NCBI GenBank assembly: GCA_023245355.1
Contig: JAHFKN010000001.1
Span: 203,528 to 267,527, forward strand
Length of the DNA: 64,000 bases
Direction: 5' to 3'
From: Candidatus Gottesmanbacteria bacterium
Lineage (GTDB): Bacteria; Patescibacteriota; Microgenomatia; UBA10105; UBA927
Part shown: positions 1 to 31,646 of the stretch, piece after piece
Layout of the letters: each line of letters opens with the position of its first letter
Position numbering within the stretch: position 1 is the stretch's first letter
Notes under the pieces: model-generated
Told to the model about the DNA's origin: nothing
What the model saw: only the letters and a program-made list of their open reading frames with translations
The model's database searches: none
Position numbers and translations under genes: made by a program

Positions 1-171
1 AAAGCGATAAAAGGTGGAAGTCGTGTCGGACAGTTGGCGGTAGATCTCTTCGGTGGATCCGGCAGTACGTTGCTGGCAGCGCACAAATTAGGGCGTGTTT
101 GTTATCTTATGGAGCTTGACCCCAAATTCTGCGATTTGATCAGAAAACGGGCACAAAGGCTCAAAATCTGA
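1..171 (+). CDS. DNA methyltransferase (N4/N6 family), C-terminal fragment; the gene begins upstream of the window
   Basis: Frame 1 translates to KAIKGGSRVGQLAVDLFGGSGSTLLAAHKLGRVCYLMELDPKF... with a stop at 169-171. DLFGGSGST matches the FxGxGxT AdoMet-binding motif of N4/N6 DNA methylases. Confidence 0.6.
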   Translation, partial: KAIKGGSRVGQLAVDLFGGSGSTLLAAHKLGRVCYLMELDPKFCDLIRKRAQRLKI

Positions 172-206
172 GCTTACGCTCGAGTAATGGGCCCGCGTAA
201 TGCCCT

Positions 207-830
207 GTGTGGGCAGATTCAGATCAAGGTGGACCAGTTACACCTAATAAAAAACATATGGCAAAACATAAACCAAAAAAACTGCTAACACTAACTGTTG
301 AGAAGATGCCCGAAGAATCTGAGCAGCAATATGCCGCATGGCTTTTGTACTGCGAAGCTGGGAGTCAAAAGAAGACAATGGACTATTGGGATAAGGTTGG
401 GCAAACCTTGGGTGAAGTTGGTGTGGATTTCGTCCTTCGCCTGGGTAAAAAGCCAAGTCACACAACCATAGAAAATTGGTCAAAAAAATATCGTTGGCCA
501 GAGCGCCGGGACCTACGCCTTGAGGAAGAACTTGTTGAACTAAAGGACAAAGTTGATCGCTTTAGAAAGAAAAGGAAGTATCTGGTGACAGAGCTACTCA
601 TCCAATCTGTGGCTAAGGTGCAAAAACAACTCAAGCAAGCCCCTGTATCAATTCTAGAACTGAAATACTTGTGGGAAATGCATAGGACTGAGTACGACGA
701 ATCAACCGGCAAGACCGAAGTCTCCCACCGTATAGACGAGAGTGAGCAGGTACCACCCACTGACAAGGATCAGGAACTGGGCAGAGAGATAGATACAGCC
801 ATCAAAAAATATTATGACAAACAAAGATAG
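207..830 (+). CDS. Putative terminase small subunit (called by position only; the start may be the internal Met at 255)
   Basis: A 200-aa basic/acidic protein lying directly upstream of the large terminase and overlapping it by 17 nt. No diagnostic motif was seen. Confidence 0.35.
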   Translation: MWADSDQGGPVTPNKKHMAKHKPKKLLTLTVEKMPEESEQQYAAWLLYCEAGSQKKTMDYWDKVGQTLGEVGVDFVLRLGKKPSHTTIENWSKKYRWPERRDLRLEEELVELKDKVDRFRKKRKYLVTELLIQSVAKVQKQLKQAPVSILELKYLWEMHRTEYDESTGKTEVSHRIDESEQVPPTDKDQELGREIDTAIKKYYDKQR

Positions 831-2361
831 AAGCAGTGTCTTACACTGGATACTAAACAACAAAATTAAGAATGAGAACGGCGAGCTTATCGAGTTCGAG
901 GACCACCGCTTCATGCTGGACATCTACGCAGACGAGGCGTCAGTACAGGTTATAAGGAAAGCATCCCAGGTTGGCGCCAGTACAATGGAGATCCTCAAGG
1001 TTATCCATGATTCACGCTTCTGGGGAATAAACCAGATCTATACCCTACCCACCGGGGATGACGTGCAGCAGTTCGTACAAAGCAAGGTAAACCGGATTAT
1101 AAACATCAATCCCTGCATGCTGGATGGTATCAACCCCAAGAGTGTCGACTCCATAGAGCAGAAGCAAATCGGTAAGGCTTTCACTTACTTTAAGGGCACG
1201 TTTACCGAGCGTGAGGCCATCATGCTCTCTTCTGACCGTAACATCCATGATGAGTTGGATAAATCCAAGCCTGAGGTGGTACGCGACTACACCTCGCGTA
1301 TGGGCTATTCCAAAATAAGAAGTCAGCACTTTTTCTCAACGCCAACCATTCCTGATTTTGGAGTGGATAAAATCTTTGAGCAGTCAGACCAGAAATACTG
1401 GCGCTTTAATTGCCCAAGGTGTCAGTACAGACAGCACATGGAGTGGGAGAAAAATGTTGATGAAATCCGGGGCATTTATATCTGCCAGAACTGTAAAAAG
1501 GAAATAATCCCCAAGGAAATCAATGATGGTGGCAGTTGGGAAGCCAAGTACCCTGGTAGACCAATCTCAGGCTACTGGATAAGCCAGCTCCACTGCCCTT
1601 GGAAGACAGCAGCCGATCTAATCAAAGAGAAATCAGATGCTGATGATGACACCTATTTTTATAACTTCGTCCTAGGCCTACCATACCTAGCTGCAGACCA
1701 GAAGATACCAGCCAGCTTATTTCTACGTAATGCTGTGGATAAAGAGGTGGATAACTTCGATGAATATAACGTCATGGGCATAGATACCGGCAAAGGGACT
1801 GGTAAGGGCAACCATGCCATCATAGGCAACCAGAAGGGCATCTTTTGGGTGGGAATCCTGCAAGACCACGAAGGCAATGACCGTTGGCAGCAAGCAGCCG
1901 AGCTAATCACCTTCTTCAACGTCAGGGTGGTCGTCATTGATGGCCAGCCTTATACCGAGGAGGCCTTCCTCTTAGCCAAGCAATTCCCTTATAGGGTGTA
2001 TTTATCATGGTTTAAGGATGACCCCAAGATGCTAGAGGTAATCCGCTTCTTTGACGAGAAGGAAAATAAGGATGCTGAATTTGAGGATGAGGTGAAGGTG
2101 TACTCCTCCCGCACCCGGATCATGGATGACACCATCTCTGCCCTGCGCCGGGGAGACATTAAGTTTGCCATGCCCTCTGACAGCCCTACCTTCAAGCTGC
2201 TTATCACCCATGCCCAAACCATGTACGCCAGAACGGTAACAGACAAACTGGGTCAGGCAAAGCGAGAGTGGGCCAACACTGGTCCAAATGATTTCTGGTT
2301 AGCACTTATTTATTGGCACATTGCCCTACGCAAACGACTTAAATATGAACCAAACAAATAA
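814..2361 (+). CDS. Terminase large subunit (GpA-like ATPase/nuclease)
   Basis: Deviant Walker A KASQVGAST resembles lambda gpA KSARVGYS. Cys pairs CPRCQ...CQNCKK form a zinc-ribbon. Size and position before the portal fit. Confidence 0.6.
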   Translation: MTNKDRSSVLHWILNNKIKNENGELIEFEDHRFMLDIYADEASVQVIRKASQVGASTMEILKVIHDSRFWGINQIYTLPTGDDVQQFVQSKVNRIININPCMLDGINPKSVDSIEQKQIGKAFTYFKGTFTEREAIMLSSDRNIHDELDKSKPEVVRDYTSRMGYSKIRSQHFFSTPTIPDFGVDKIFEQSDQKYWRFNCPRCQYRQHMEWEKNVDEIRGIYICQNCKKEIIPKEINDGGSWEAKYPGRPISGYWISQLHCPWKTAADLIKEKSDADDDTYFYNFVLGLPYLAADQKIPASLFLRNAVDKEVDNFDEYNVMGIDTGKGTGKGNHAIIGNQKGIFWVGILQDHEGNDRWQQAAELITFFNVRVVVIDGQPYTEEAFLLAKQFPYRVYLSWFKDDPKMLEVIRFFDEKENKDAEFEDEVKVYSSRTRIMDDTISALRRGDIKFAMPSDSPTFKLLITHAQTMYARTVTDKLGQAKREWANTGPNDFWLALIYWHIALRKRLKYEPNK

Positions 2362-2569
2362 CCCACCCAAAGTAATAACGGTCCCAGTGACAGAAGCAGA
2401 AGCCAAGATCTTGGCAGACATCCGCCGGGTGAAGTACGGACGAGTGGACGTTTATATCCAGGATGGCAAACCCTACCGTAAAGAAATCGTGGAGCAAGAG
2501 CGTATCACCCCAGAAGAAGGTGGCAGTGCGGGACAGTTCCCCCGCAAACAAGCTGGTATAGAGATTTAA
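2345..2569 (+). CDS. Small protein, DUF2292 (YezD)-like
   Basis: YGRVDVYIQDGKPYRKEIVEQERI resembles the YezD motif GSV.I.V.DGKVV.IE. The start was moved to Met 2345, just after the terminase stop. Confidence 0.3.
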   Translation: MNQTNNPPKVITVPVTEAEAKILADIRRVKYGRVDVYIQDGKPYRKEIVEQERITPEEGGSAGQFPRKQAGIEI

Positions 2570-2678
2570 TTACTCTCCTGACATAGGGATAAATTCACAA
2601 AACCCCAGCAATTCTTATATACTTAGAGCAGGAAAATGTTACTTTTCCCTAACTCGACCGTTTACTTTAATAGAAGCG

Positions 2679-3203
2679 GTGGAGAATGGATTTATTAGTA
2701 TGACGAAACCACCGTTTGAAGAGGTAGTTAAAAACTATATAAAACTAGTTTATTTCTTTGCCAAGAAATCCTTGTCTGATCAGGCAGACGTAGATGACAT
2801 GGTACAAGAAACCTTTTTGAAGGCTATGAAAACATACGATAAATTTAACTTTAAGAGTGAGGGTGAGTTGAAAAGCTGGTTATTAACCATTTGTCGCCAC
2901 CTGATCATCGATCAATTCCGCTCCCGCAAGCATACCGTGACCATGGATGACGAAAAAATGGATCTGTTTGGCAATGGTGAAACAGAAGAACTGCTGGAAG
3001 CCCAAATTGATAAAGAAGATAGCGTAAAGAAAATACAGAAGGCACTCGCCTTGTTAAAACCCACGGAAAAACAAATAATGAATCTGCGTGTATGTGAAGA
3101 GATGGAATTTAAAGAGATCGCCATTGCCCTATGTTCCAAAGAGGCTGCCGTTAAAATGCGATTTTATCGTGCATTAATTAAGCTCAAAGAATCACTGATA
3201 TGA
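2679..3203 (+). CDS. ECF-family sigma-70 factor
   Basis: Region 2 (LLTICRHLIIDQFRSRKH) and region 4 helix-turn-helix (EEMEFKEIAIALCSKEAAVKMRFYRALIKL) are both present. Confidence 0.8.
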   Translation: MENGFISMTKPPFEEVVKNYIKLVYFFAKKSLSDQADVDDMVQETFLKAMKTYDKFNFKSEGELKSWLLTICRHLIIDQFRSRKHTVTMDDEKMDLFGNGETEELLEAQIDKEDSVKKIQKALALLKPTEKQIMNLRVCEEMEFKEIAIALCSKEAAVKMRFYRALIKLKESLI

Positions 3204-4108
3204 AATTCAAAAGTATTATCAAACAAGCATTCGAGAAAGAGGAGCTAAAAGAAGCCAGACACATCGATGATCTGGAGAGCCAAATATTGATGAAGGTCCG
3301 GGCGGAGAAGACAGAAGAAGCAGAACTCAAAAGGTATTTTAGGCCAATAGAATCCTTTTGGAACTTTAAAATTCCGTATGCATTTGCCGTAGCTGTGTTG
3401 GCGGTTATATTCATTACCTTCACCACATCATCTGTTTTGGCAAAGGGTTCGGTCATGGAAATGCTGATAAACCTGAGGAACGCCCTACAACAGGAGCTGT
3501 CGCAGCTATTGAACACTGACCCAACTTATAGAGATAAAGGAACCCAGAAATACCAGCAAGCCCAAAAGGAATGGTGCTTGGTCAGCGCACGACCGGCAGA
3601 GGCGCGTGAGCAGGCGGTAGAAGCCGTAAGGGACTTCTTAGACCGGCCTGATGCCAATGTGGAGTATGAGTGTGTGCGAAACCCAAGCAATAACACGAAC
3701 GAGCAACCACAGACCGAAAGTTATATCGTCGACTTTGACCGCTTTACTATTGATACTCAAACCAATCAAATTACAGAGATGGCACCGACCGGCGGGAGAT
3801 GGGGAGAGAATAAAGACGGTACACGCTGGTTTAGTCCACAGAAGGAATACGACTACACCGCACGATATAGCCAGACTGAGGCAGAACAATTAGCCAGAAC
3901 CTTTATAGCTGACCATGAGAAGGCGTTGGGAAAGATTGATCTAAGCAAACTTACCCTAGAGAGTGGAAAGAAAGACGATGGATCCGGCAAAGTAAACTAC
4001 TTTTTCATCTGGAAAACTGATGGACAGGGTGAGGACATACCCCAGTTAAATATCTCTTATACCCAGGGTGGGCAACTCATCTCCTTCTTGAACGAATTGA
4101 TACACTGA
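3200..4108 (+). CDS. Putative anti-sigma factor, single-pass membrane protein
   Basis: Its start overlaps the sigma-factor stop (ATGA). It has a cytoplasmic N-terminus, one TM helix (YAFAVAVLAVIFITFTT) and a ~200-aa ectodomain. Confidence 0.5.
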   Translation: MKFKSIIKQAFEKEELKEARHIDDLESQILMKVRAEKTEEAELKRYFRPIESFWNFKIPYAFAVAVLAVIFITFTTSSVLAKGSVMEMLINLRNALQQELSQLLNTDPTYRDKGTQKYQQAQKEWCLVSARPAEAREQAVEAVRDFLDRPDANVEYECVRNPSNNTNEQPQTESYIVDFDRFTIDTQTNQITEMAPTGGRWGENKDGTRWFSPQKEYDYTARYSQTEAEQLARTFIADHEKALGKIDLSKLTLESGKKDDGSGKVNYFFIWKTDGQGEDIPQLNISYTQGGQLISFLNELIH

Positions 4109-4341
4109 TCCTGATTTTCTTCAGTAATCACCACTAACAAACAGCACTTGACATTCTCAAACTAATTTGTAATAGTTGATGTATGAGAAGTAAGAATAGT
4201 AAGTATTTACTTATACTACACACGCTTCGTTATCTCTTCCATAAGACATCCAGTGATTGTTCCCAAAACTCCCTTCCTTTGACAACCCAGGTTATTAGTA
4301 ATAACTGGGTTTATTTATAAATTAGTGCTTATAGAAAGGAG

Positions 4342-5145
4342 GTGAAAAATAAAAAAGCTATGAAGTATCCAAAAAGAATGTTAGTAATTCTTCCCCTACT
4401 TGCTGTCTCCGCTTTTGTCGGCTTCGGTCTCGCAAAGACTGATACCGTCGGCGCACAGCAAGACCCAAAACAGGCGAGGATAGAAACTCTGCAAAAGAAG
4501 TACCTAGACGCAGTCGAAAATGCTAAGACAAATGGTGAGTTCACCACGAACCAATTCGGCGAGAAAGTCTACGCTGGTAAAACAGCTGACGACCTAAAGA
4601 GTCTAGAGAAAGAGGTTGGTACTGAGATACGAGAACTGACAGCGCGTCCCGCTGCGGATAGAGCCAAGGCCGTTGAAGCCGTCAATGGATGGAATGATAA
4701 ATTCCTCTATACGATAGATAATCAGCCAAAGCAAACTCTCCAATATGCTGGTCGGTCAGGACAAGTTCAAGGCAGCAAACTCATTGGCGCAGAGCGGTAC
4801 TTTTCGGAAGACTATCAATTCACAATCGACCCGCAAACCAACAAAATCGTTGAGATGTATCTACGTCCCAAAGAAGTTGGCGAACCGGCAGCGTTCGAAG
4901 ACATGACCCCACGCTTTACCGAAGCTCAGTTAGAGCAAAAAGCCCGACAATTGATCGAGGCACAAAACTTAGGCGTGAATCTAAGCTCTTTGAAGTTCGA
5001 GAAAAACCATAAGGTAGGAACCTTTTTCTACACATGGGAAGGTGAAAAGATAGCAGACGGAGTACAACCCTCGCTTTACGTGGCATTCACGCAAGGTGGG
5101 CAACTGATCGGCTACATCAACGCAGGCTTTTTTGACAAACTATGA
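4342..5145 (+). CDS. Secreted protein, paralog of the anti-sigma ectodomain
   Basis: Signal peptide MKYPKRMLVILPLLAVSAFVGFGLA. Shares blocks with the 3200..4108 ectodomain: ARPAADRAKAVEAV vs ARPAEAREQAVEAV, FTIDPQTNKIVEM vs FTIDTQTNQITEM, FTQGGQLIGYIN vs YTQGGQLISFLN. Confidence 0.6.
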   Translation: MKNKKAMKYPKRMLVILPLLAVSAFVGFGLAKTDTVGAQQDPKQARIETLQKKYLDAVENAKTNGEFTTNQFGEKVYAGKTADDLKSLEKEVGTEIRELTARPAADRAKAVEAVNGWNDKFLYTIDNQPKQTLQYAGRSGQVQGSKLIGAERYFSEDYQFTIDPQTNKIVEMYLRPKEVGEPAAFEDMTPRFTEAQLEQKARQLIEAQNLGVNLSSLKFEKNHKVGTFFYTWEGEKIADGVQPSLYVAFTQGGQLIGYINAGFFDKL

Positions 5146-5765
5146 AAAACATATTTTCAAAAATCTTAATAGCATTGGCGGTGATAGCGGTCATGGGCTT
5201 TACCAGCGTGAGTAGTGCATTGGCCTTTGGCGATGCATCTATTTACTGCACGGGTGGTGGCTACTTTGACAAATTCGGCCCCAGCCAATACTGGTCCGAA
5301 TTTACGAGTATGGGATGGTGTAACGCCCCAGCTGGCAACAACTGGTGCGAGAATGGACAATGTGCCCAAAACTCACCCTACAATACTGTGACTCGCAGTA
5401 TGTGGAGAACCTACTCAGGGAGTCAACAGAGTAACTACGCCCGTTGGAATATGGGTAACGATGGTGGTTATTGGTACTGGTTTGCCTTTATACCAAGTAA
5501 CTATGCGACCACCTCGAGGGCGCCGTATACGATTACCTACGCGGGTGGGAGCCAATACAACTTCACTGTTAACCAGAATGCTTATTCAAACATCTGGGTA
5601 ACTCCTGGTTCACGAACTGAGAATTTCACTCAGATCATGAATACATGGTTATCTGATGCGACGAGCGAAAGCCCGTCTCAGCAAATTGGTTTTGATGAGG
5701 TTCAGAAATGTTCTGAAGCAAGTCAATACAGTGCTTATTGTCCAGGCAACCATACCAGAAGGTAA
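5142..5765 (+). CDS. Secreted Cys/Trp/Tyr-rich protein, unknown function
   Basis: Signal peptide ILIALAVIAVMGFTSVSSALA. Start is translationally coupled to the previous gene (ATGA). The mature part is rich in C, W, Y and N. Confidence 0.5.
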   Translation: MKNIFSKILIALAVIAVMGFTSVSSALAFGDASIYCTGGGYFDKFGPSQYWSEFTSMGWCNAPAGNNWCENGQCAQNSPYNTVTRSMWRTYSGSQQSNYARWNMGNDGGYWYWFAFIPSNYATTSRAPYTITYAGGSQYNFTVNQNAYSNIWVTPGSRTENFTQIMNTWLSDATSESPSQQIGFDEVQKCSEASQYSAYCPGNHTRR

Positions 5766-5848
5766 TGGAGGAAGGTCAGGGCCAGCCCGTCAAAAGGCTG
5801 GCCTGACCCAGCAGAGAAAGAATATTTAAACTAAAATAAAAATGCAAT

Positions 5849-6391
5849 ATGAGAAATAAAAAGATAAACATCAAGGAAATAATCCTGATCGCTATTGCCT
5901 GCCTGGTAGTGACAACTGGCTCATATGCGATCTTTACCCATAAAGACAGTAGATTTGAGGCGGTAGACTTGGCCAACAGAACCGAGGATAAAGGAGTAGA
6001 AGATTACTTTGTCGAGAAACTTGGTATGAACGGCGAAGAAGCCAAGAAGTTTGCCGATCAAGGGGTGTCGTTTTATATCACTGGCACTACCAACCTGGAT
6101 GCTATTATCAGCAATCTCCATTACTATGGCCTGATTAAGGACGAGAAGGCCTTCAGAGAGGCATTGGCAAAAACTAAAGACACGCTGCCCGGTAATGAGA
6201 ATGCAATTAAAATAGGTAACAACACTATTGATATTCACGCTTACTATGGCCTGAAGAAGGGGCTCACCGCCTGGCAAGTAGCAGATGTACTACTTAATCA
6301 CCCGGTTTATTTGAAGGGTGAGGAATATAATTACATGTTTATGCCCGGAGAGTACTATGGTGATGCTGCCCAGAACACACCAGCACGATGA
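5849..6391 (+). CDS. Secreted or membrane-anchored protein, unknown function
   Basis: N-terminal hydrophobic segment IILIAIACLVVTTGSYAIF. Same strand as the rest of the cassette. Confidence 0.4.
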   Translation: MRNKKINIKEIILIAIACLVVTTGSYAIFTHKDSRFEAVDLANRTEDKGVEDYFVEKLGMNGEEAKKFADQGVSFYITGTTNLDAIISNLHYYGLIKDEKAFREALAKTKDTLPGNENAIKIGNNTIDIHAYYGLKKGLTAWQVADVLLNHPVYLKGEEYNYMFMPGEYYGDAAQNTPAR

Positions 6392-6416
6392 TAGTAAAAT
6401 TTAGTAGAATACGCTT

Positions 6417-6986
6417 ATGAAGTTAAAAACATTTTTAGTCTGTATCGCAACAATTATTGCCTTAGGTTTTATCATTAAAAACTTCACTGGCAATAACTCA
6501 AAGCAGTCACCCTCCCCTGCGCCTGCTGAGGTAACCAAAACCACACCTGATGCTGTACTGAAACCAGGTAGATCTCTCAAACCAAACGAGGAGTTTATAT
6601 CACCCTTCGGTTTATATGTAACTGTCCCCAAAGATATGACCTTCAGAAAAGAAGTAGCTGACGATGAAGGTATTATTCGTACAGTTGGGTTTTATATCGA
6701 AAACAGCAGTAAAGATAATCCCTATATGCTGTACGGATTATACGAAGCCAAAAATGTCGCCATTGATCAAACCATGGCAAGTGCCAAAAAAGATATGGTC
6801 GCCTCGACAATTAAAGACATAACAATCGGCGGGTATAAAGGTGTCGAAGGATTAATAACCGGCGACAAAACCAGATATATGGCAGTCATCGTCAAAGACG
6901 GCAAAAAGATCACCTTCTCGACTATTCCACCAACCGAAAGCAATAAAGTCATCACTGATCAGCTCCTCTCCACCTTCAGTTTTTAA
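6417..6986 (+). CDS. Secreted or membrane-anchored protein, unknown function
   Basis: N-terminal hydrophobic segment FLVCIATIIALGFII followed by a Ser/Pro-rich linker. Confidence 0.4.
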   Translation: MKLKTFLVCIATIIALGFIIKNFTGNNSKQSPSPAPAEVTKTTPDAVLKPGRSLKPNEEFISPFGLYVTVPKDMTFRKEVADDEGIIRTVGFYIENSSKDNPYMLYGLYEAKNVAIDQTMASAKKDMVASTIKDITIGGYKGVEGLITGDKTRYMAVIVKDGKKITFSTIPPTESNKVITDQLLSTFSF

Positions 6987-7050
6987 ATAACTTCTGACAG
7001 AAACGTTCTTGAAACAGACAATCTTCCCTTTGTAATATTGAAGCATAACT

Positions 7051-7124
7051 AGTTAGCCTAACGAATCAGTCGGGGCTTAGATTTATTTATTCGTAAAGAA
7101 TAGATGAACCTAAGCCCCTTTTTT
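7051..7124 (+). promoter_or_regulatory. Conserved box (GTTAG-C-CTAAC GAA N4 TCGGGGCT), long hairpin and U-run; copy 1
   Basis: Box at 7051-7076. Hairpin ggggcttag (7072-7080) pairs with ctaagcccc (7110-7118), then tttttt at 7119-7124. The same layout recurs at 14381-14461. Confidence 0.45.
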
Positions 7125-8978: not shown

Positions 8979-8983
8979 AATGA

Positions 8984-9373: not shown

Positions 9374-9439
9374 GAATATTGTAACAATTTTCTACATGAT
9401 TTGCTAGACTATATCAGTTGTAAGCAGTAACATAAGAAC

Positions 9440-10285: not shown

Positions 10286-10305
10286 GCATCTTGAACACGT
10301 TAAAT

Positions 10306-10333
10306 TTGACAAAAGACGAATTTTTTGTATAAT
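10306..10333 (+). promoter_or_regulatory. Sigma-70-type promoter with extended -10
   Basis: TTGACA at 10306-10311, a 16-nt spacer, then TGTATAAT with TATAAT at 10328-10333. Confidence 0.55.
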
Positions 10334-10339
10334 ATACTC

Positions 10340-11921: not shown

Positions 11922-11935
11922 AGGAGGTAAATTAT

Positions 11936-12478: not shown

Positions 12479-12480
12479 AT

Positions 12481-17784: not shown

Positions 17785-17796
17785 AAGGTAATAAAT

Positions 17797-18087: not shown

Positions 18088-18089
18088 AT

Positions 18090-18677: not shown

Positions 18678-18681
18678 GGAG

Positions 18682-20611: not shown

Positions 20612-20617
20612 AAATAT

Positions 20618-22728: not shown

Positions 22729-22730
22729 CT

Positions 22731-24032: not shown

Positions 24033-25096
24033 TGGCAACAAAACAATTAGGCGGGTGGTATTGGCAACCTGAGCAGAATAAAGCTCTGCGTTGGTGGGGT
24101 ACTGATTCTGCTGGCAAAGATATTTATACCGCAGGTGATGAACCAAGTAAGCCACAAACTGTATCTAATTTGAGTACAGGACTAAGTACGGTTGGATCCG
24201 GAAATGTTTTGGGGTTTGACCTCAACACTCTTAATTCTAAATTCCAAGACACCTACGGTCAGGTCCAAGGGCTGTCGACTGATCTGGAAGATTATTCAAC
24301 GCGGCGATATGACGAGGAATACAGCAAGGCAGGCTTGGGTAAAACTAAAGATGAAATTGCGGCATTAGACGCTAGTATTGCCAGTGAGAAAAACGTCCGA
24401 GATGAATCGGTTAGTAAGGTCAGAAAAAACCCTGGGTACTCTGCGGCAACCATTACCGGAGAAACCGGTGAAGTCCAAAAACTAGCCGACTCGAAAATTG
24501 GCAATTTAATTGAAGAACGAAATGCAAAAGCACAAACCTACAATGCTACCTTAGGTGAAATCACCCAAAGAGTAGCTACTGAAACTCAAGGCAAACAAAG
24601 CAAACTGAATAGCTTACGTTCTGATCTACAGCTTATAAGCGGATTAGTAGATTCCTATAACAAAACCAGATCAACCGAACTTTCCAGTCAAACCGATGAA
24701 ACACATTGGGAAAAAGAATTCGAACTAAAACTCTATAGTGCCCAAACCGATCGTATGAAAACCGGCGACGGGAGTGGTACGTATGCCAAACAACAGGTCA
24801 AGGATGCCTTTGGTAATGTGACTGGTTTCTTTGATCCAGTATCCGGACAAACAACGCCTTATCAATCAGATTCTCAAAAGAATCAGACAACAACAGTAAA
24901 TGAAGGTGAGCTTAGAAATGAAATTAGAGCAGCCTGGAAAACTGGCTTGAACGCTGACCAACTAAAGACAAATCTGGCAAACGTGACGACTGATAAAGGT
25001 AAGAACGCCTCACAAGTGATTGACGAGGAGTGGCAGTTAAAAAATCAACCAGGAATCATGGGCTTTTTACGAAGGCTCTTTACCCCTGGAGTTTAG
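24032..25096 (+). CDS. Hypothetical tail protein
   Basis: Start overlaps the previous stop (TAATGG). Ser/Thr/Gln-rich. Confidence 0.35.
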   Translation: MATKQLGGWYWQPEQNKALRWWGTDSAGKDIYTAGDEPSKPQTVSNLSTGLSTVGSGNVLGFDLNTLNSKFQDTYGQVQGLSTDLEDYSTRRYDEEYSKAGLGKTKDEIAALDASIASEKNVRDESVSKVRKNPGYSAATITGETGEVQKLADSKIGNLIEERNAKAQTYNATLGEITQRVATETQGKQSKLNSLRSDLQLISGLVDSYNKTRSTELSSQTDETHWEKEFELKLYSAQTDRMKTGDGSGTYAKQQVKDAFGNVTGFFDPVSGQTTPYQSDSQKNQTTTVNEGELRNEIRAAWKTGLNADQLKTNLANVTTDKGKNASQVIDEEWQLKNQPGIMGFLRRLFTPGV

Positions 25097-25098
25097 AA

Positions 25099-28000
25099 AT
25101 GATTATGGACAACTTTTTAGAACAACTAAAGAAAAACATCACCTCGTCGTTTGCCAATACCAAACAGTCAGTGGGTGATATTTTTGGTAAGGCTCAAACA
25201 AGTCTGACTAATCTGGTGCGTGGTGGTCAACAAAAAGTTGATGAGGTCATTAAACCATTGCAGTACGATATCGCAATTCCTGGCCCAACAAGTGGAAGCT
25301 ACAAACCGTTTAAGAATTTATATTTGGAGACGGCAGCCCAAGCGCTAGGAGTTGGGGCTCGGGACACTGATGTCTTGGAGAGGTTGCCTAGTGCAACTTT
25401 TGGCGCACTTAAGGGTGCCGGTAACGGACTGGGTGAAGCGTTGTCATTTGGTTGGTGGAAACCGGAAATAAAATATGCCGATGATATAGAAAAACAAGCC
25501 GGTGACATGACTGAGGTTGAGTTTAATGTTCTGGGAACTATTGGAACATTTTTGGTCGGTGGCGAGTTGGTCCAAGGAGCCTTACGAGGTGTGCCTCTTC
25601 TGGCGCGAGTAGCGACTGTCGCCCCTAGAACTTTCAATGTGTTATCGACTGGACTGACATTTGCCGGACTTACTCAAATTCAAAAGGACGAAGCACAAAA
25701 GAACGCTGCACAGCGAGCAAAAGATTTTGTGGGTGATTTTGCTCTCGGTGGAGCCTTCTCGATTGCCGGAATGAAAACATCGTTCCTGAAGTCTTCGGCG
25801 ATTATTGGTCCAGCCACTTATGTCACTTCACTCTTAAAAGGAGAGTCAAACGGTGATGCGCTTAAAGATACAACAGCCATGATGGGACTCCACTCCCTTA
25901 ATTTCGCAGTGGCTAAGTTTTTACCTAATGGATCAGAAATAGAAAACCGAATAGAAAAAGCGGCCAGTGAACAACTCAAAATAACTAAAGCAGAGGCAAT
26001 GGAATACTTGGGCATTAGCGATAAAGCGACGGCAGAGGAAATGAAACAAGCTTGGAAAAATAAGGTGGTTGACATCACCAAGCGATTCCCGGCTCAGGCC
26101 AATCAAACACCACAAGAAATGGGAGTATTTAATCAAGCTTGGAATACAGCCAATAGAGCCTATGAATTCTTAGCAAAGGTGAGTAATCCGGAAGGATATA
26201 CCGGCAAGTCTTTTGCTCAAGAGTTTCAAGATTTATATTACCAACTCTGGAAAGATGTCCCAGATAAACGCTCGGCCATTGTCAAAGCCGTTCGCAGCTT
26301 ACCGGCCGGTCTATCTGTTCGGGCGACACTAAATGATGGCCAAAGAAACGAAATTGTTACTACCCTAGGTGGTGAAGAAGCAAAGACGAGACTGGGAAAA
26401 GTGGCTGAATTAACTGATGCAGATTTAGTGTCAGTGGCCATGGAGAATAAAATCACGGTTACCCCTTCTAAAACAACAGTACCGGAAACAATACAACTTC
26501 CTGCGACAGAACAAACTGCTGAGGCTTCAGCTCAACTAAAAACTAATTTAAGTCTTCAAGAACAAAAAGCTGTTAAAGCAGCCGAGATCCGAGATAAATA
26601 TATAACACCTGAAGAAAAAGAACTGGCTGATGCCGAAAAGATTCCTAGCATCGGTGACATTTTACAATCACAAACCTTTCAAGATCGATTGCAAGGCAAA
26701 GTTACAGCACCCACTACTCCACGAGCAGATCAGTTGAGAGAACTACCTCCAGGTAAACCGCCTCGCCCGCCACAAGAAGTGTCCCTCGATGGTGCACCAC
26801 CATCGCCAGAAGGCAGTGCTTTGGATGAGATCGATAAAATGGTTGGCAAAATCTCAACGGCTAAATCAATTCTGGGGAATATTAAAAACGCTATCGAAAC
26901 ATTTCCTCGAATGTTTACTGACAGGTTTGCACCTATAAAGAATTTTGAGGATCAAATAACCAAACTCCAAGGGCAACCAATCAATATCGATTCCAGTCCA
27001 TATGTGGCAGCCAGAATGTATGCTGGCCGATTTGGAATTGTTGAGGGAAACTTCAAAGATTTATATAACATCCTACAACCGGTGCGAAAGCTTCGTGCTG
27101 ACTTTACCCGATTTGTTTTATCTGAACGTGCCATAGAGCGTGCAGAGCGAGGATTTGATAACCCTAATGGGGTTACAAAAGAAACGGCAGAACAAGCTCT
27201 GGTGGAATTGAAAGATAAAGTCGGTGATAAAGCATTCAAAGCATTCGAGCAGGTTGGCCAGGGAATTCAAAACTGGTCCATTAAATCAATACTCCAACCC
27301 ATGAAGGATGCCGGAATCTTAGGGAAAGAAGCCTTCACCTCAATTGTCGAGAACAACAAACGATGGATGCCGTTCCATGTTCTCGAGTATATGCCTTCAG
27401 TGGAGCAAGCCGACCAGATGGCAGTTGGTAGTGAAACTTTCTCGGTAAGTAAACAGGGGGTGATCAAATCTCTAGAAGGAACGGAAAAAATCATTCGTGA
27501 TCCGTTTATGTCGATTATTGATAATCTAACGAAATCGGTCAGCTTAGTGGAGCGCAATAAGGTGGCCCAAAAACTGATTGACCTGCGAAATAGCCATCCT
27601 GATGCTGCCAAAGAGTTTATAAAGTTTTTACCGGATGGTTTACGACCGCCAGCAGAGTGGGATGCAATTAGCGTCTTTATTGACGGCAAAGTGACGAAAT
27701 GGGCAGTACCCAAAGATCTCTCGGAAGCGATGCATGCTTTATCCTCAGCCGAAACAGGACTGATGGGTAAAATGATTTTAGCTTCGTCAAAAGCCTTCAA
27801 AGCCGGAACTACGTCACTCTATTTCCCGTTTACTCTTTCAAATGCCATCCGGGATTACCAAACTGCCTCAATTGTTTCTAAGTGGGGATTTAATCCAGCC
27901 AACTGGCTATCAGGATTCAAAGACGGACTAAAGGCCGCCTTTAAGTTTGACTCCAAAGCATATGACGAATTCATGACCAACAAAGGTGGTTATGGAGGAT

Positions 28001-29385
28001 ATATCGAATCATCAAAAGGGCTCGCTGTCGCTTCTGAACAACTTTTCACCCCTGAGTGGATGAATCGAGCAAAAATTGTCGTCAATCCCTTTCAGCTCAT
28101 CAGTACCTTTTCAGAAGCAATAGAACTGGCTCCCCGATTGGGGGTTTATAAAAAAGGAATTGCTCAAGGAGCTACTCGACTTGAAGCAGCTTACGAAGCA
28201 CGCAATGTGACGGTTGATTTTGCAAAGGCTGGAATTGAAGGTCGACTGATTAATATGTGGATTCCCTTTGTGAATGCTCGTTGGCAAGGACTTCTGACCA
28301 TTGGCAAAGTGATGAAGGAAAATCCATTTAGAACGACGGTGCGAGCTTTGGCCTTGACGGTCCTGCCTGGTGTAGCTACTTATTTTTATAACGTCATGAA
28401 CCATGAAGATCTTTGGGACGATATCCCCCAATGGGCCAAAGATACATATTTTATTGTGATTGTAGGTGAAGGCCAAGATAGCCAAGGAAATCGGGTGCCG
28501 AAAGTAGTTCAAATCCCTAAAGGTGATATGGGGACTATATTTTTCAACCCGTTAATGTATGCCTTGGAATACGTGCGAAAACAGGAGCCAACTAACCTCT
28601 TTAAGTTAGGACTCGAGTGGATGAGCCAATTGTCACCGGTCTCGTTTACCAGAGATGGAGAATTATCAGCTCAGTCTTTCCTTGGGAGCGCACTACCTCC
28701 AGCGTTAAAAGTGCCATTGGAGCTGGCGACAAACACTAATCTTTTCACCGGATTCCCAATTGTGCCTCAGCGCTTAGAGAAAGTGACACCAACTGAGCAA
28801 TATGATGAGAAAACACCACAAATAGCAGTTACGGCCGGTCGAGCTTTGGGCATCAGTCCGATGAAGCTGACCCATGCAATTTCAGGATTAGCCGGAAGTT
28901 TTTCTCGTCAAGTAATGAACCCCGCCGACATTATCAATTTAACGACACAGCGCTTTTATCGGCTTCAGGGTGGGCAAAAACAACAGGCAGCCTGGGATAT
29001 TAAGTATGACGCTGAAGTGGGCTACAACACCACGAGGCTGCAGATGAAACGGCTGATCGAGCAGGGTCAGCTTCAGCAAGCCCAACAGATGGCGCTCAAA
29101 TGGAATCAGGAGGCCGAGAAACTCATTTCCCAGATAGTTCCACTCCTAATGAAAGATGACCCCAAGGAAGCGGCTTCATTTCAAAGTAGCATCACTTTTG
29201 ATGCTGCAGATTTGCAGCGACTCCTGAAGACAACGCTTCCTGGTGGTGTACCACAAAATGCTGGAACTGATCAAACACTAATTCCCCTTCAGCCTGGACT
29301 TAATACTAATTCGACCATGGGACAACTATTCCAGGGTGGTCAACAAAATAGTGGCGACGCTATAAGGAGGTTAATTTACAAATGA
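25099..29385 (+). CDS. Large virion protein (~1,430 aa): internal core, ejection or tape-measure-like
   Basis: Giant ORF in the tail block with long helical segments and a Pro-rich linker PPGKPPRPPQEV. Start set at Met 25099 after the previous stop. Confidence 0.4.
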   Translation: MIMDNFLEQLKKNITSSFANTKQSVGDIFGKAQTSLTNLVRGGQQKVDEVIKPLQYDIAIPGPTSGSYKPFKNLYLETAAQALGVGARDTDVLERLPSATFGALKGAGNGLGEALSFGWWKPEIKYADDIEKQAGDMTEVEFNVLGTIGTFLVGGELVQGALRGVPLLARVATVAPRTFNVLSTGLTFAGLTQIQKDEAQKNAAQRAKDFVGDFALGGAFSIAGMKTSFLKSSAIIGPATYVTSLLKGESNGDALKDTTAMMGLHSLNFAVAKFLPNGSEIENRIEKAASEQLKITKAEAMEYLGISDKATAEEMKQAWKNKVVDITKRFPAQANQTPQEMGVFNQAWNTANRAYEFLAKVSNPEGYTGKSFAQEFQDLYYQLWKDVPDKRSAIVKAVRSLPAGLSVRATLNDGQRNEIVTTLGGEEAKTRLGKVAELTDADLVSVAMENKITVTPSKTTVPETIQLPATEQTAEASAQLKTNLSLQEQKAVKAAEIRDKYITPEEKELADAEKIPSIGDILQSQTFQDRLQGKVTAPTTPRADQLRELPPGKPPRPPQEVSLDGAPPSPEGSALDEIDKMVGKISTAKSILGNIKNAIETFPRMFTDRFAPIKNFEDQITKLQGQPINIDSSPYVAARMYAGRFGIVEGNFKDLYNILQPVRKLRADFTRFVLSERAIERAERGFDNPNGVTKETAEQALVELKDKVGDKAFKAFEQVGQGIQNWSIKSILQPMKDAGILGKEAFTSIVENNKRWMPFHVLEYMPSVEQADQMAVGSETFSVSKQGVIKSLEGTEKIIRDPFMSIIDNLTKSVSLVERNKVAQKLIDLRNSHPDAAKEFIKFLPDGLRPPAEWDAISVFIDGKVTKWAVPKDLSEAMHALSSAETGLMGKMILASSKAFKAGTTSLYFPFTLSNAIRDYQTASIVSKWGFNPANWLSGFKDGLKAAFKFDSKAYDEFMTNKGGYGGYIESSKGLAVASEQLFTPEWMNRAKIVVNPFQLISTFSEAIELAPRLGVYKKGIAQGATRLEAAYEARNVTVDFAKAGIEGRLINMWIPFVNARWQGLLTIGKVMKENPFRTTVRALALTVLPGVATYFYNVMNHEDLWDDIPQWAKDTYFIVIVGEGQDSQGNRVPKVVQIPKGDMGTIFFNPLMYALEYVRKQEPTNLFKLGLEWMSQLSPVSFTRDGELSAQSFLGSALPPALKVPLELATNTNLFTGFPIVPQRLEKVTPTEQYDEKTPQIAVTAGRALGISPMKLTHAISGLAGSFSRQVMNPADIINLTTQRFYRLQGGQKQQAAWDIKYDAEVGYNTTRLQMKRLIEQGQLQQAQQMALKWNQEAEKLISQIVPLLMKDDPKEAASFQSSITFDAADLQRLLKTTLPGGVPQNAGTDQTLIPLQPGLNTNSTMGQLFQGGQQNSGDAIRRLIYK

Positions 29386-30485
29386 AACAACTAACACTAC
29401 CGATTATTTTTAGTCAAAATGATAGCCGATGGAAAAATAGTCCTCTGGGAACCAGAGGCACAATTGGCTTATATGGCTGCCTGGAGAATGATGCCACGAT
29501 GGTGACCAATTATTACGGCTTCCAGGAAACGCCGCTCACCTTAAATGAGAAGCTAACCAACAATGCTGGATATCAGGATGGGAATAAATTTGTCTGGAGC
29601 GTCTTTGCTCGATTATTCGGTCTTAAGTATTCTGGCCAATGGTCCAATACCGGAGCGTTGACCCAAGCCCAAATGGACCAGATCCGAAAAGCTATTGATG
29701 GTGGTTACCCGGTGTTTCTCCAAATCGACACGATTCCAGCCACTTCAGCTCTGGATGAACATTGGATCCTGGCTATTGGGTATGAAGGTGATGACTTTCT
29801 TATTCAAGATCCATGGGACGGAGCGACTAAACGAATCACCAGCTGGGGTGTGACTGCTCAGAAGCTAATTTACGCCTGGTGTTGGTTTGAAGGAAAGCCA
29901 GTCAAAGTAGAGGTAGCCGATGGCTGTCTTGTTCCTAACACTCCGGAATGGCGTACGAAGTACGAACAAATCGTCGCATCAGCCACTAAGTGGGCAGATA
30001 CCCTCAAGATTTTAGAGATAACCGATGACCCCAACGCTACCCCTACAGACAAAATTAAAAGCACTATGGCAGGGTATAAAAGTCGCGAAACCGACCTATC
30101 TAACAAGCTAAATGATAAACAGGGATTGCTTGATAATGCCAACAAGGAGATTGAGAACCGAACCGAGCAAGTAAGCAGACTCGATGGCGATCTGCTAGAG
30201 AAGGATAAATACTATAAATCACTGGTTGACGCACTAAATAAGCAAGTCAAAAACGGCTCAGATGCCCTACCCTTGGCACAGGCTAGGGTTGGGGTGCTTG
30301 AGGGGGAACTGGATGAAGCCAATAAAGCTAAGGGTCGTGCCTTGCTAGAGGCTCAACAGAACAAAAGCCAATTGGAAGCCTGCCAAAAAGGAACCATTGC
30401 TCCTACACCCCAATTAATTCTCAAGTTGACTATCCAATACATTACAAATTTAGTAACCAAAAAAGGAGGTGAGAACAATGGATAA
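29382..30485 (+). CDS. Papain-like cysteine peptidase (C39-like or CHAP-like), endolysin candidate
   Basis: Gln...Cys...His in order: SQNDSRWKN (oxyanion Gln), LYGCLENDATMV (Cys), EHWILAIGYEGDDFLIQDPWDG (His/Asp), then a coiled-coil tail. Confidence 0.45.
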   Translation: MKQLTLPIIFSQNDSRWKNSPLGTRGTIGLYGCLENDATMVTNYYGFQETPLTLNEKLTNNAGYQDGNKFVWSVFARLFGLKYSGQWSNTGALTQAQMDQIRKAIDGGYPVFLQIDTIPATSALDEHWILAIGYEGDDFLIQDPWDGATKRITSWGVTAQKLIYAWCWFEGKPVKVEVADGCLVPNTPEWRTKYEQIVASATKWADTLKILEITDDPNATPTDKIKSTMAGYKSRETDLSNKLNDKQGLLDNANKEIENRTEQVSRLDGDLLEKDKYYKSLVDALNKQVKNGSDALPLAQARVGVLEGELDEANKAKGRALLEAQQNKSQLEACQKGTIAPTPQLILKLTIQYITNLVTKKGGENNG

Positions 30486-30741
30486 TATATATCCCGAATG
30501 GAAGAAGGTCGCATGGAGATTTCTGCGAGTCTTTATTTCAGCCTTTTTATTTACCGGATCGATGGTGTTAATCAATGCCCAACCAGAAATGTTGAGTAGT
30601 TGGAATAAATTTCTCAACACACTTGTCCTGCCATTTTTAATGGCTGGTGGAGTGGCGGGAATTAACTCAGTCGGCAAACTATTGCGTGACCTATTTGGTA
30701 CACAAGACAAAACCGGATTAATTGACAAATTGCCATTCTAA
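30469..30741 (+). CDS. Holin-like two-TM protein
   Basis: Two hydrophobic helices (FLRVFISAFLFTGSMVLI and LVLPFLMAGGVAGI). It lies directly after the peptidase with an AAAGGAGGTGAGAACAATG ribosome-binding site. Confidence 0.4.
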   Translation: MRTMDNIYPEWKKVAWRFLRVFISAFLFTGSMVLINAQPEMLSSWNKFLNTLVLPFLMAGGVAGINSVGKLLRDLFGTQDKTGLIDKLPF

Positions 30742-30746
30742 ATACT

Positions 30747-30995
30747 ATGAACAATAACCAATCCACCGACACAAATATGGGTGAACGAATCGCTAAACTC
30801 GAAGAACGAGTGGACGGTGGATTGGGTTATATTAATAAGGAATTGGTGGAAATAAAAGAGAACCATCTCTATCACCTGCAAATTGATGTAACCGATTTGA
30901 AAATGAAGGTTAATACCCTAACAGTGAAAGTGAGTGTTGGAGTAGCAATCGCGACAATTTTAGTCGATTTGGTTTTTCGCTATCTGCTCAAATAA
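30747..30995 (+). CDS. Small membrane protein (holin, antiholin or spanin-like)
   Basis: C-terminal TM VSVGVAIATILVDLVF with a coiled-coil N-terminus. Confidence 0.3.
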   Translation: MNNNQSTDTNMGERIAKLEERVDGGLGYINKELVEIKENHLYHLQIDVTDLKMKVNTLTVKVSVGVAIATILVDLVFRYLLK

Positions 30996-30996
30996 G

Positions 30997-31272
30997 CTAC
31001 TTATCCTTTTTCTTATTAAGATCGGTTCCGAGAAGATTATGTAGGTCTTTGGTAAAACCCTCAAAAGCGTTAGCGTTTAAGACGGTAAAATATGTGGATC
31101 CGGGAACGCCAGTAAAGACCAAGGTATCACCAGGCTGAATGTTCTGGGCTTTTCTCAGTTTGGCAGGAATAACTAACTGACCGCGTGAACTCACCGGCGA
31201 GGTGCCGAAAACAACGGTCTTAGCTGACTTTTTATCTTTAGGCTTACTTTTATCGTTCATAGTTGAAATCAA
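30997..31272 (-). CDS. AbrB/MazE/SpoVT-family DNA-binding protein
   Basis: SSRGQLVIPAKLRKAQNIQPGDTLVF fits the swapped-hairpin (looped-hinge helix) motif. Opposite strand to the phage genes, at the block's edge. Confidence 0.5.
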   Translation of the reverse strand: MISTMNDKSKPKDKKSAKTVVFGTSPVSSRGQLVIPAKLRKAQNIQPGDTLVFTGVPGSTYFTVLNANAFEGFTKDLHNLLGTDLNKKKDK

Positions 31273-31570
31273 CTTGCTTTGAGACAGTAAAGCAATTCCC
31301 TATAATTAAGAATAATCTTTAATTACAGTAGTCGTATTATACAATAAATAGGTCTTGAGAAGAACGAAAGTTGGAAAATGACAGAAAGATACAATACCAA
31401 CCTTGTGTTGACAGGGGGTTACGAAGTAAAATACTAGTTGTGGTTATTGAGGGAGAGCAAAAGAATCAATACCCATATGTTCTTTAAGAGCTGAAAACTG
31501 TAACTGAAGATCTGGTGTGATATAGTTGACCAGGCTAAATAGGTCCGAGCCAATTACGGTTACCAGCTCC

Positions 31571-31596
31571 AAAAACAGACCCCATTCGGGGTCTTT
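31571..31596 (+). terminator. Intrinsic terminator at the composition boundary
   Basis: cagaccccattcggggtc hairpin followed by ttttttt. Confidence 0.5.
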
Positions 31597-31646
31597 TTTT
31601 GACTTATATTCCCTTCGCCCGCTCACTTTTGCTACACTGATTCTAT

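Follow-up and report, generated by a model that had tools for sequence, protein, structure and literature searches.

Prophages are already documented in candidate phyla radiation (CPR) bacteria. A prophage of about 27 kb described in Roizmanbacteria, of the CPR Microgenomates, encodes a tape measure and a major tail protein and is long-tailed (Chen et al. 2019, PMC6509639), and proviruses were found in 20.4% of groundwater Patescibacteria genomes (PMC12960796). Here, we analyzed a stretch of 64,000 nucleotides, hereafter the window, from contig JAHFKN010000001.1 of a Candidatus Gottesmanbacteria assembly (GCA_023245355.1, positions 203,528 to 267,527), in which a block of phage genes adjoins chromosomal genes. 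With a probability of about 0.92, positions 1-31,624 of the window are the right-hand 31.6 kb of a temperate prophage of about 38.05 kb, whose insertion site is the 3' end of a gene for tRNA-Gly(CCC). The element resembles the CPR prophages of both studies (PMC6509639, PMC12960796) in being an integrated temperate tailed phage of an ultra-small CPR bacterium, with integrase, terminase, capsid and lysis genes, and in being known from metagenomes only. It differs from the Roizmanbacteria prophage by its SU10-type capsid, portal and adaptor, the lack of tail-tube genes, a serine recombinase, and cargo genes for an aminoacyl-tRNA synthetase (aaRS) and a sigma factor.

Integration into tRNA genes is usual for tyrosine integrases, whereas the well-studied large serine integrases (Bxb1, phiC31, A118, SPbeta SprA) mostly target protein-coding genes and use short shared cores. 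Prophages and satellites of the P2/P4 type carry hot spots of anti-phage defence, in which interchangeable systems lie between conserved genes. In mycobacterial prophages with tyrosine integrases, the tRNA attachment cores are 25-76 bp long (PMC8092301). Concerning the regulation of aaRS genes, the anatomy of T-box leaders has been reviewed for the transcriptional and translational classes, with Firmicutes glyQS/glyS and Actinobacteria ileS as representatives (PMC7583486).

Results

Boundaries and attachment sites of the prophage

The packaging, head, tail and lysis genes identified by family searches form one co-oriented block on the plus strand. A 1-kb composition scan of the window gave a GC content of 0.38-0.47 from position 1 to about 31.6 kb, then of about 0.49-0.56. 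The mean gene GC is 0.432 in the phage block and 0.504 in the host block, with third-position GC (GC3) values of 0.416 and 0.545, and the tetranucleotide vectors, averaged over each block, correlate with r = 0.22 only; the signature switches at about 31.6 kb and again at the other end of the element. Hence, the jump from AT-rich to GC-rich DNA described in an initial annotation of this stretch exists, both in composition and in codon usage, but amounts to only about 7 points (0.43 to 0.50). The same annotation had assigned terminase, portal, scaffold, capsid, fibre and lysis genes to positions 1 to about 31,300. Family searches confirm this assignment and carry it to about 31,600, the scaffold being placed by position only. 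The block consists of a phage backbone but is not purely phage, about 9.5 kb of it (2679-6986 and 8984-14254) being non-phage cargo. At its right end stands, as previously noted, an intrinsic terminator, with a 7-bp stem and a U-run (31577-31594); it is bidirectional and scores on both strands. The first host gene, encoding a Na/Ca exchanger (31647-32591, plus strand; PF01699), opens a chromosomal right half that also contains MltG/YceG, tRNA-Thr, a glycosyltransferase cluster, ParB, FtsW, a class I aaRS, FtsZ, FtsA and MurG.

On the left, the block runs off the window edge and its first gene is truncated, as already observed: only the 3' end of a ParB-N/N6_N4 DNA methyltransferase gene is present (1-171, plus strand; PF01555, 2.9e-8). 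An exact-sequence look-up of the large terminase led to a 63,904-bp contig of the European Nucleotide Archive (ENA), L001, which is identical to window positions 1-12361 over 12,361 bases and carries the full methylase gene (8099-9358, 419 amino acids (aa), phrog_498 4e-117). To the left of the window, L001 encodes, in order, the rest of the methylase, three small genes, one of which has weak replication-initiator matches, a divergent helix-turn-helix (HTH) protein, an ImmA-like M78 protease, a DUF3800 protein, an 88-aa protein and a large serine recombinase. Beyond the recombinase, at the host GC of 0.50, an intact tRNA-Gly(CCC) gene is followed by LysM, tRNA-Asp, PolX and LemA. The initial annotation had seen neither an integrase nor attachment repeats. 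Indeed, no integrase lies inside the window, but a recombinase gene is found 4.9-6.5 kb left of its start; the integrase seemed to be missing because the window edge cuts the element. As for the repeats, one copy does lie within the window, its partner being 6.4 kb to the left of it.

These two copies correspond to the last 17 nt of the tRNA-Gly gene (ATTCCCTTCGCCCGCTC). The attL core lies within the intact tRNA (L001 2746-2762, that is window positions -6441 to -6425). Its twin, the attR core, is at 31608-31624 on the plus strand, 13 nt past the terminator and 22 nt ahead of the start codon of the Na/Ca exchanger. The attL junction reads ...GGTTCG-ATTCCCTTCGCCCGCTC-CATATCGG and the attR junction ...GACTTAT-core-ACTTTTGC, which gives GGTTCG-core-ACTTTTGC for attB and GACTTAT-core-CATATCGG for attP. 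The 17-bp direct repeat coincides with both composition boundaries. In the 73 kb examined, only two 17-mers are repeated more than 5 kb apart, including the att core; the other (TACGACCGGCAATCCGA, at 40837-40853 in a GT1-family glycosyltransferase gene and at 62811-62827 in murG) probably reflects either chance or a motif common to the two genes. The tRNA-Thr gene at 34531 was also considered as an attachment site; it was discarded, since 2.9 kb of host DNA separate it from the junction and its position is conserved in relatives.

Uninterrupted versions of the site were found in related genomes; all are cross-species empty sites. In L005, MltG (74% identity), the Na/Ca exchanger (94% amino-acid identity), tRNA-Gly(CCC), LysM (81%), tRNA-Asp and PolX (81%) are contiguous without the insert, and the bases 3' of tRNA-Gly match those located 3' of attR in the window. 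In three other contigs (L007, L010 and L011), tRNA-Gly and tRNA-Asp are about 1 kb apart, with no insert between them. A scan of genome collections with MltG led to CPR/Patescibacteria, the closest proteins (70-79% amino-acid identity) including some labelled Ca. Gottesmanbacteria, and the identical capsid gene is also present on a 384,795-bp NCBI contig. From the MltG matches, the host is assigned to the Microgenomates group of the CPR, nearest to Ca. Gottesmanbacteria.

The initial annotation had envisaged a recently acquired prophage, a phage-plasmid or an assembly chimera. In the last case, a phage contig would have been misjoined to a chromosomal contig at a short shared repeat near 31.6 kb; the composition switch is abrupt, and an assembler might in principle be misled by a 17-nt repeat of tRNA origin standing at the join. 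However, the Na/Ca-exchanger protein was located on five contigs, and in the three that were fetched (L002, L003 and L004; ERZ27279977, SRR14366791 and SRR14366796), which come from one MEGAHIT-style ENA assembly and two Logan assemblies of different runs, the phage genes run up to the same junction, which is base-identical to the window with zero mismatches. The same join is thus produced from three samples by two assemblers. In addition, the other end of the element meets the chromosome at the matching tRNA, so that both junctions fall on the same 17-nt tRNA end, both flanks are adjacent in related genomes, and the 3' end of the integrase gene is the repeat itself. A chimera thus keeps virtually no probability.

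An extrachromosomal element such as a phage-plasmid, only seemingly linked to the chromosome, was suggested by the ParB_N-domain protein at the left edge of the window and by the absence of an integrase within it. However, the only ParB-like domain present is this ParB_N domain, which forms one protein with a DNA methylase, as is common in phages (phrog_498), and no plasmid replication or partition genes were found in the element. Moreover, attL and attR bound the element within the chromosome, with chromosomal genes on both flanks that are adjacent in relatives. We consider this explanation extremely improbable. On the other hand, the integrase, attL and the empty sites support a recently acquired prophage: the acquisition is taken as recent because integrase and attL adjoin the window, related genomes are uninterrupted and the composition has not ameliorated. 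The initial annotation regarded an integrase together with attL upstream as the mark of an ordinary prophage and, since both are found there, the element is an ordinary prophage in that sense.

Several observations weigh against an active prophage integrated in this way. An exact-pattern scan of JGI metagenome contigs found no empty attB of the same strain, and pattern scans of IMG/VR and JGI contigs found no excised attP junction. The contigs that span the junction are all 100% identical and may derive from one population or study, their independence being limited to separate runs and assemblers. The oligonucleotide signature of the phage is far from that of the host (r = 0.22). An identical core of 17 bp within a tRNA gene would normally point to a tyrosine integrase and not to a serine integrase, but the element has no tyrosine integrase. 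Finally, a phrog search gave no clear replication module beyond the weak replication-initiator match.

A serine recombinase family associated with tRNA genes

The recombinase (L001 2655-4307, window positions -6532 to -4880; 550 aa) matches PF00239 and phrog_95 (1e-61). Its N-terminal part contains the catalytic-serine motif YCRKSSEDKDRQ. In its C-terminal part, a weak Zn_ribbon_recom match is accompanied by a visible CxxC...C...C cluster, and partial matches to XisF and CcrB remain below their cut-offs. The int gene ends with the att core, which makes up its final six codons. In the reconstructed attP form, the protein has 521 aa and ends with ...ERAKGI, the 31577-31594 terminator being directly 3' on the minus strand. 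In the prophage, the frame continues for 29 codons through the antisense tRNA, which yields the 550-aa form. Comparison of L001 2655-2762 with window positions 31577-31607 shows that integration splits int from its terminator and alters the C-terminus. These changes may be incidental; alternatively, they could influence how stable the integrase is, or its directionality, as in systems of integration-dependent immunity.

Overall, integration most likely proceeded as follows. The core of the circular phage recombined with the identical tRNA 3' end, placing the phage between tRNA-Gly and the Na/Ca-exchanger gene, and the phage-encoded large serine recombinase would have performed the reaction; as judged from its sequence, it is the likely acting enzyme. 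The tRNA was rebuilt at attL with a 3' end supplied by the phage, the old 3' end remained as attR (31608-31624), and the integrase gene was left apart from the 31577-31594 terminator. The HTH repressor-like gene and the ImmA-like metalloprotease gene located beside the integrase would constitute the lysogeny module.

When the tRNA-Gly 3' ends of L001 (2691-2764), L005 (reverse complement) and the window (31608-31626) are compared, the phage-supplied end encodes the terminal CCA (…GCTCCA), whereas neither the end displaced from the host (…GCTCAC) nor the allele of the empty site in L005 (…GCTCAA) does so.

Seven related integrases, 68-82% identical, were examined on IMG/VR contigs that also carry a related portal. 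Five of the seven terminate within the antisense 3' end of a tRNA that ARAGORN recognized: Gly(TCC) twice, Gly(GCC), Gly(CCC) and Thr(TGT). L075, the sixth, terminates at its contig end in a 3' sequence resembling that of a tRNA; in the seventh, L074, the contig stops before the site is reached. These termini indicate that the integrase family consistently targets tRNA genes. Such a specialization is noteworthy for serine recombinases, because tRNA targeting is the habit of tyrosine integrases and the characterized serine enzymes mostly hit protein-coding genes. With Bxb1, phiC31, A118 and SPbeta SprA, the present family shares an N-terminal resolvase domain, a zinc ribbon, a length of about 520 aa, a position at the prophage end and an adjoining small gene as candidate directionality factor. 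It differs from them in its tRNA targets, mostly tRNA-Gly isoacceptors, and in a core located within the last int codons. With the tRNA prophages of tyrosine integrases (PMC8092301), the element has in common an attB at the tRNA 3' end, a phage that rebuilds this end, a bracketing direct repeat and an int gene abutting attP; here, however, the enzyme is a serine recombinase and the core has 17 bp.

Virion genes and integrity of the phage

All virion genes described below are on the plus strand. The small terminase (258-830; phrog_6299, 7.8e-9) lies directly 5' of the large terminase, a gpA-type ATPase (814-2361; PF05876, 1e-14; phrog_675, 2e-90). The portal (7104-8978) matches PF23899 SU10_portal with 4.5e-6 and 25.8 bits, for a Pfam cut-off of 30, as well as phrog_332 and phrog_1216. 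Two small head-module genes conserved in synteny with relatives (14473-14775 and 14782-15036) and an acidic protein in scaffold position (15042-15860), for which a scaffold role is proposed from position only, precede the SU10-type major capsid protein (15903-17069; PF17236 8e-41, 140.8 bits for a cut-off of 24.1; phrog_1328). The neck region (17176-21262) encodes a SAP-domain protein, two proteins without assignment, a KH-domain protein, a protein of 551 aa that has an Amidase_2 domain at its C-terminus (18956-20611) and an SU10-type adaptor (20618-21262; 29.6 bits for a cut-off of 27). The tail region (21253-29385) encodes a 491-aa protein, a tail fibre (22731-24032; phrog_892, phrog_7660), a 354-aa protein and a 1451-aa LPD38-domain protein (25030-29385; PF18857 3.9e-23; phrog_9854 3.6e-61), likely an ejected internal protein. 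It is followed by a putative lysis cassette (29382-30995), consisting of a 367-aa C39-like peptidase (PF13529, 4e-9) and two small proteins, the first of which is hydrophobic; the lysis function is suggested by this gene content.

The family searches found no tape-measure, tube or sheath genes in the phage block. Because of this lack and of the SU10-type capsid, portal and adaptor, the phage is probably short-tailed, a virion morphology that we predict from gene families. The element shares its capsid, portal and adaptor families and the order of its head genes with short-tailed phages of the SU10 and 119X-PaP2 types. Among deposited phages, Roseobacter phage CRP-810, Microcystis phage Mel-JY34 and Caulobacter phage Kuura come nearest, with a capsid identity of 23-29%. 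It differs from SU10-type phages by its host phylum, its temperate lifestyle, the cargo slots flanking the portal and a portal score below the Pfam cut-off. Since, in addition, the adaptor barely passes its own cut-off and the capsid identity does not exceed 29%, we provisionally group it with the SU10-like (Kuravirus-type) phages by shared fold families and not as a member of the genus.

A defective or domesticated prophage, which would neither excise nor form particles and would be kept for cargo such as its glycine-related cassette or its sigma-factor module (both described below), would account for the lack of an attP form in IMG/VR and JGI contigs, for the absence of an obvious replication module and for an integrase that is 29 aa longer after integration; the cargo itself is full-length and passes curated family cut-offs. 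Against this, every structural, packaging, lysis and lysogeny gene examined has a full-length open frame, the gene order is shared with relatives, both att cores are perfect and the insert is absent from related genomes. Furthermore, near-identical phage arms occur in another genome (L025), and therefore point to recent mobility. We regard a defective prophage as unlikely. The integrated phage is presumed to be still inducible. No attP and no same-strain attB junction was recovered from IMG/VR or JGI contigs, so that its current activity is a supposition.

Some features of the block and its surroundings should also be mentioned. The SAP-domain gene (17176-17784) and the KhpA/B-type KH-domain gene for an RNA-binding protein (18682-19005) are unusual in a virion module and are conserved among relatives. 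The last phage gene, on the minus strand, encodes an AbrB/MazE-fold DNA-binding protein (30997-31272; PF04014, TIGR01439). Downstream, a promoter-like TTGACA-16 nt-AATACT sequence (31408-31435) faces the 31577-31594 terminator, with about 140 nt and no open reading frame between them. The 31408-31600 region, in which no Rfam match was found, may encode a small RNA or correspond to an arm of attP; at the gathering threshold, Rfam detects two host tRNAs only in the whole window. The ribosome-binding site AGGAGGTGA, which the initial annotation had attributed to nearly every gene, is not general: at least 5 nt of it are found at -20 to -4 in 7 of the 34 phage-block genes, with five occurrences of the exact 9-mer. 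Among the host genes (31647-63167), a recognizable Shine-Dalgarno match was seen in 1/25, as compared to 7/34 for the phage block; the CPR host appears to start translation largely without Shine-Dalgarno sequences. Within the host glycosyltransferase cluster, a second low-GC island (43507-47134; gene GC 0.34-0.41, GC3 0.29-0.39, non-host tetranucleotide signature) encodes a GT2-like protein, an S-adenosylmethionine (SAM) methyltransferase and a 677-aa alpha/beta-hydrolase, and is probably a separately acquired surface-polysaccharide cassette; the 1-kb composition scan shows it at 44-47 kb.

Two cargo slots flank the portal gene

Related phages were recognized on 18 IMG/VR contigs, with portals 58-86% identical to that of the element. 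Capsid matches extend to at least 435 protein clusters at E <= 1e-20, some of them on contigs, as long as 1.1 Mb, that bear the names Ca. Daviesbacteria or Ca. Beckwithbacteria. Synteny defines a conserved backbone with, in order, small terminase, large terminase, g60, a first slot, portal, a second slot, the small genes, scaffold, capsid and onward.

In the present element, slot 1 (2679-6986, plus strand) contains an ECF sigma factor (2679-3203; Sigma70_r2 and r4_2; TIGR02937 1e-28), a 302-aa gene in anti-sigma position that overlaps the sigma gene (3200-4108), and genes for four proteins whose N-termini, read from the sequence, correspond to a signal or membrane anchor (4342-5145, 5142-5765, 5849-6391 and 6417-6986). 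This sigma module is common to L025, L029, L031, L053, L055 and L064, with an extra MltG-like gene in the first three. Other relatives have other genes in this slot, namely defence genes: a type I restriction-modification system, or combinations of an OLD-family AAA_15-TOPRIM ATPase and a UvrD-like helicase or of a PLD-SNF2 helicase and an Eco57I-like methylase. Slot 2 (8984-14254, both strands) contains a cupin gene (8984-9373, minus), a two-domain GNAT gene (9440-10285, plus), the glycine cassette described below and a gene for a 128-aa protein without assignment (13868-14254, minus). In relatives, its size varies from about 0.3 to 10 kb, the slot being either nearly empty or filled with 6-10 kb of different genes, such as a reverse transcriptase, or a P-type ATPase with a low-molecular-weight phosphatase.

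L025, labelled Ca. Shapirobacteria UBA2283, carries a prophage left arm with 82-97% protein identity, most genes being at 91-97%. Ahead of its portal (13665-20762; GC 0.33-0.37) are a Gabija-like pair (753-aa OLD-family ATPase and 646-aa UvrD-like helicase), a PD-(D/E)XK-like protein and type I restriction genes. In slot 2 of L048 (18913-20322) and L062 (8439-9848), a 345-aa reverse transcriptase adjoins a 128-aa helical protein and may belong to a retron or a diversity-generating retroelement. As in the hot spots of P2/P4-type elements, fixed positions thus hold interchangeable defence systems in relatives of this phage. The slots described here, however, flank the portal of a CPR phage and, in the present element, hold regulatory and metabolic cargo: PADLOC returned nothing credible for ten cargo proteins.

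An imperfect direct repeat of about 90 bp stands at the right edge of both slots, 5' of the portal (6985-7085) and 5' of the first head-module gene (14315-14410). Its 32-nt core is 84% identical between the copies, which contain promoter-like TTGAAA-N18-TAATAT and AGTTAGCCTAACGAA...TCGGGGCT sequences, and it may restart late transcription after each slot. The repeat was considered as a family-wide recombination site and rejected, being undetectable in the relatives examined.

A mobile cassette with two T-box-like leaders

The glycine cassette of slot 2 spans 3.5 kb on the plus strand (10306-13860). It is made of a promoter and two tandem T-box-like leaders (10306-10655), followed by genes for serine hydroxymethyltransferase (SHMT; 10656-11921, 421 aa; NF000586 380 bits for a cut-off of 335; PF00464 7e-64), for an orphan 180-aa protein, u180 (11936-12478), always found directly 5' of GlyRS, and for GlyRS itself, a dimeric class II glycine--tRNA ligase (12481-13860, 459 aa; NF003211 620 bits for a cut-off of 312).

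DNA similarity to other contigs, at 83-87%, spans exactly positions 10317-13811. The SHMT-u180-GlyRS unit is found in L065 among genes for a type IV secretion system pilin, TraC and TraG-like proteins, a relaxase-like protein and defence genes, with protein identities to the window of 90% (SHMT), 72% (u180) and 83% (GlyRS). It is also found in L067, downstream of UvrC and SecG. These contexts mark the cassette as mobile and place one copy in a conjugative element. In L065, a ProRS gene and a tRNA-binding-domain gene lie near the shared cassette (18940-21377); they may be part of the element or of the chromosome beside it. The cassette GlyRS is 65-75% identical to GlyRS proteins on large CPR contigs; a chromosomal context was confirmed for P0009 only (75% identical), where the gene follows recO without SHMT. 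No second, host GlyRS was found near this region in the host-related loci that were fetched. The GNAT protein (9440-10285) was considered as a TacT/AtaT-type toxin acetylating Gly-tRNA and tied to GlyRS; this proposal was rejected, as it is a 281-aa two-domain protein located outside the conserved 3.5-kb unit.

The u180 protein has no Pfam, NCBIfam, PHROG or PADLOC match. It forms 7 clusters among 5.8 billion proteins, and a profile search of 1.84 billion representatives added five remote homologues (E 5e-12 to 2e-4). The two that were looked up (P0128, on three contigs, and P0130, on one contig) are both encoded directly 5' of a GlyRS gene. In L078, the context of the related u178 is chromosomal: recO ... 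u178-GlyRS ... S20.

The cassette promoter is of consensus type, TTGACA-16 nt-TATAAT with a TG before the -10 element. The two leaders match Rfam family RF00230 with 46.6 bits (E 3e-9) and 40.2 bits (E 1e-7); both scores are below the gathering score of 93, and the matches appeared only under an E-value threshold. The T-box core TAGGGTGGAACC(A/G)CG is present at 10429 and 10610, that is two occurrences for 0.02 expected, and the leader is about 99% conserved in five contexts, more than the coding DNA. By default, the minimum free energy fold of T-box 1 forms a terminator (about 10450-10500, followed by U7; z = -4.5), and that of T-box 2 a hairpin that buries GGAGG and both candidate AUG codons (z = -3.1). 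Each leader contains a very short Stem I hairpin, the loop of which contains UGGCA(A) in all four copies compared; this could be read as a GGC glycine specifier followed by a purine. Three pairs of the hairpin show compensatory changes in the four-sequence alignment. T-box-like matches are also located 5' of the chromosomal u178-GlyRS genes in L078-L081, with two in tandem in L081.

The leaders resemble the T-boxes of glyQS/glyS and ileS by the UGGA-ACC bulge, Stem III, the competing terminator or sequestrator helix, a K-turn-like GA motif and a putative GGC+A specifier, as well as by their position 5' of GlyRS and the predicted occurrence of both transcriptional and translational modes. They differ in that they score below threshold, have a Stem I of 3-4 bp with the specifier in the apical loop and no Stem II, are tandem copies with different read-outs, and belong to mobile DNA in a CPR host. 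If they function as T-boxes, the UGGA bulge would pair with the U discriminator base, and uncharged tRNA-Gly would relieve first the terminator, then the hairpin that sequesters the ribosome-binding site. Relief of both leaders would switch on SHMT, which converts serine to glycine, u180 and GlyRS. A T-box function and a benefit of the cassette to the lysogen are put forward as conditional, because a design without long Stem I and without Stem II has not been described as working.

We tentatively propose, at slightly less than even odds, that the cassette is a mobile self-regulating glycine module, in which two minimal tandem T-boxes, one transcriptional and one translational, would sense uncharged tRNA-Gly and switch on SHMT, u180 and a second GlyRS, and which would move between CPR phages and conjugative elements. 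Two results argue against it. Both T-box matches are sub-gathering and lack the long Stem I and Stem II, an architecture that is not known to work; and AlphaFold, run on the seven-sequence alignment of u180, gave a mean pLDDT of 38.7 and thus no predicted structure. To our knowledge, no T-box-controlled aaRS cassette has been reported as cargo of a phage or conjugative element, nor a minimal T-box in CPR. A full-text literature search for T-box riboswitches together with CPR found nothing, and a search on aaRS of CPR phages found nothing relevant.

Alternatively, the cassette could be a resistance or counter-defence device, providing a spare GlyRS against a toxin, an inhibitor or a rival element and not a response to starvation. 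A spare aaRS gene carried on a plasmid is a classic means of resisting an inhibitor. The cassette rides mobile elements, in slots that hold defence systems in relatives, and in L065 it stands beside GmrSD, an EcoRI methylase and an AAA_15/HNH pair; in addition, CPR chromosomes carry their own GlyRS in the recO context. On the other hand, PADLOC gave no match, the T-box logic fits amino-acid homeostasis, the T-box-u180-GlyRS operon is also chromosomal in other CPR genomes, and no natural GlyRS inhibitor is implicated. Such a device appears doubtful, and we retain the glycine module as the preferred, if tentative, interpretation.

Discussion

The composition jump in this contig is a normal prophage boundary and the contig is not misassembled. 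Since CPR prophages are already documented, this answer to the question raised by the initial annotation is in itself ordinary. Nevertheless, for a widespread and previously undescribed temperate phage family of Microgenomates CPR, the att sites are now precisely delimited, a host is assigned and an empty site is available; we know of no cultured phage-host system for this bacterial group. A family of tRNA-specific serine integrases with defined attP and attB is of interest for integrase toolkits, and the two hot spots flanking the portal can be mined for CPR defence systems. The compact mobile cassette may hold the smallest natural T-box design together with an unknown protein partner of GlyRS. 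If this proposal is correct, the glycine module and the tRNA-Gly-targeting integrases would show that CPR mobile elements trade translation-supply functions for auxotrophic hosts.

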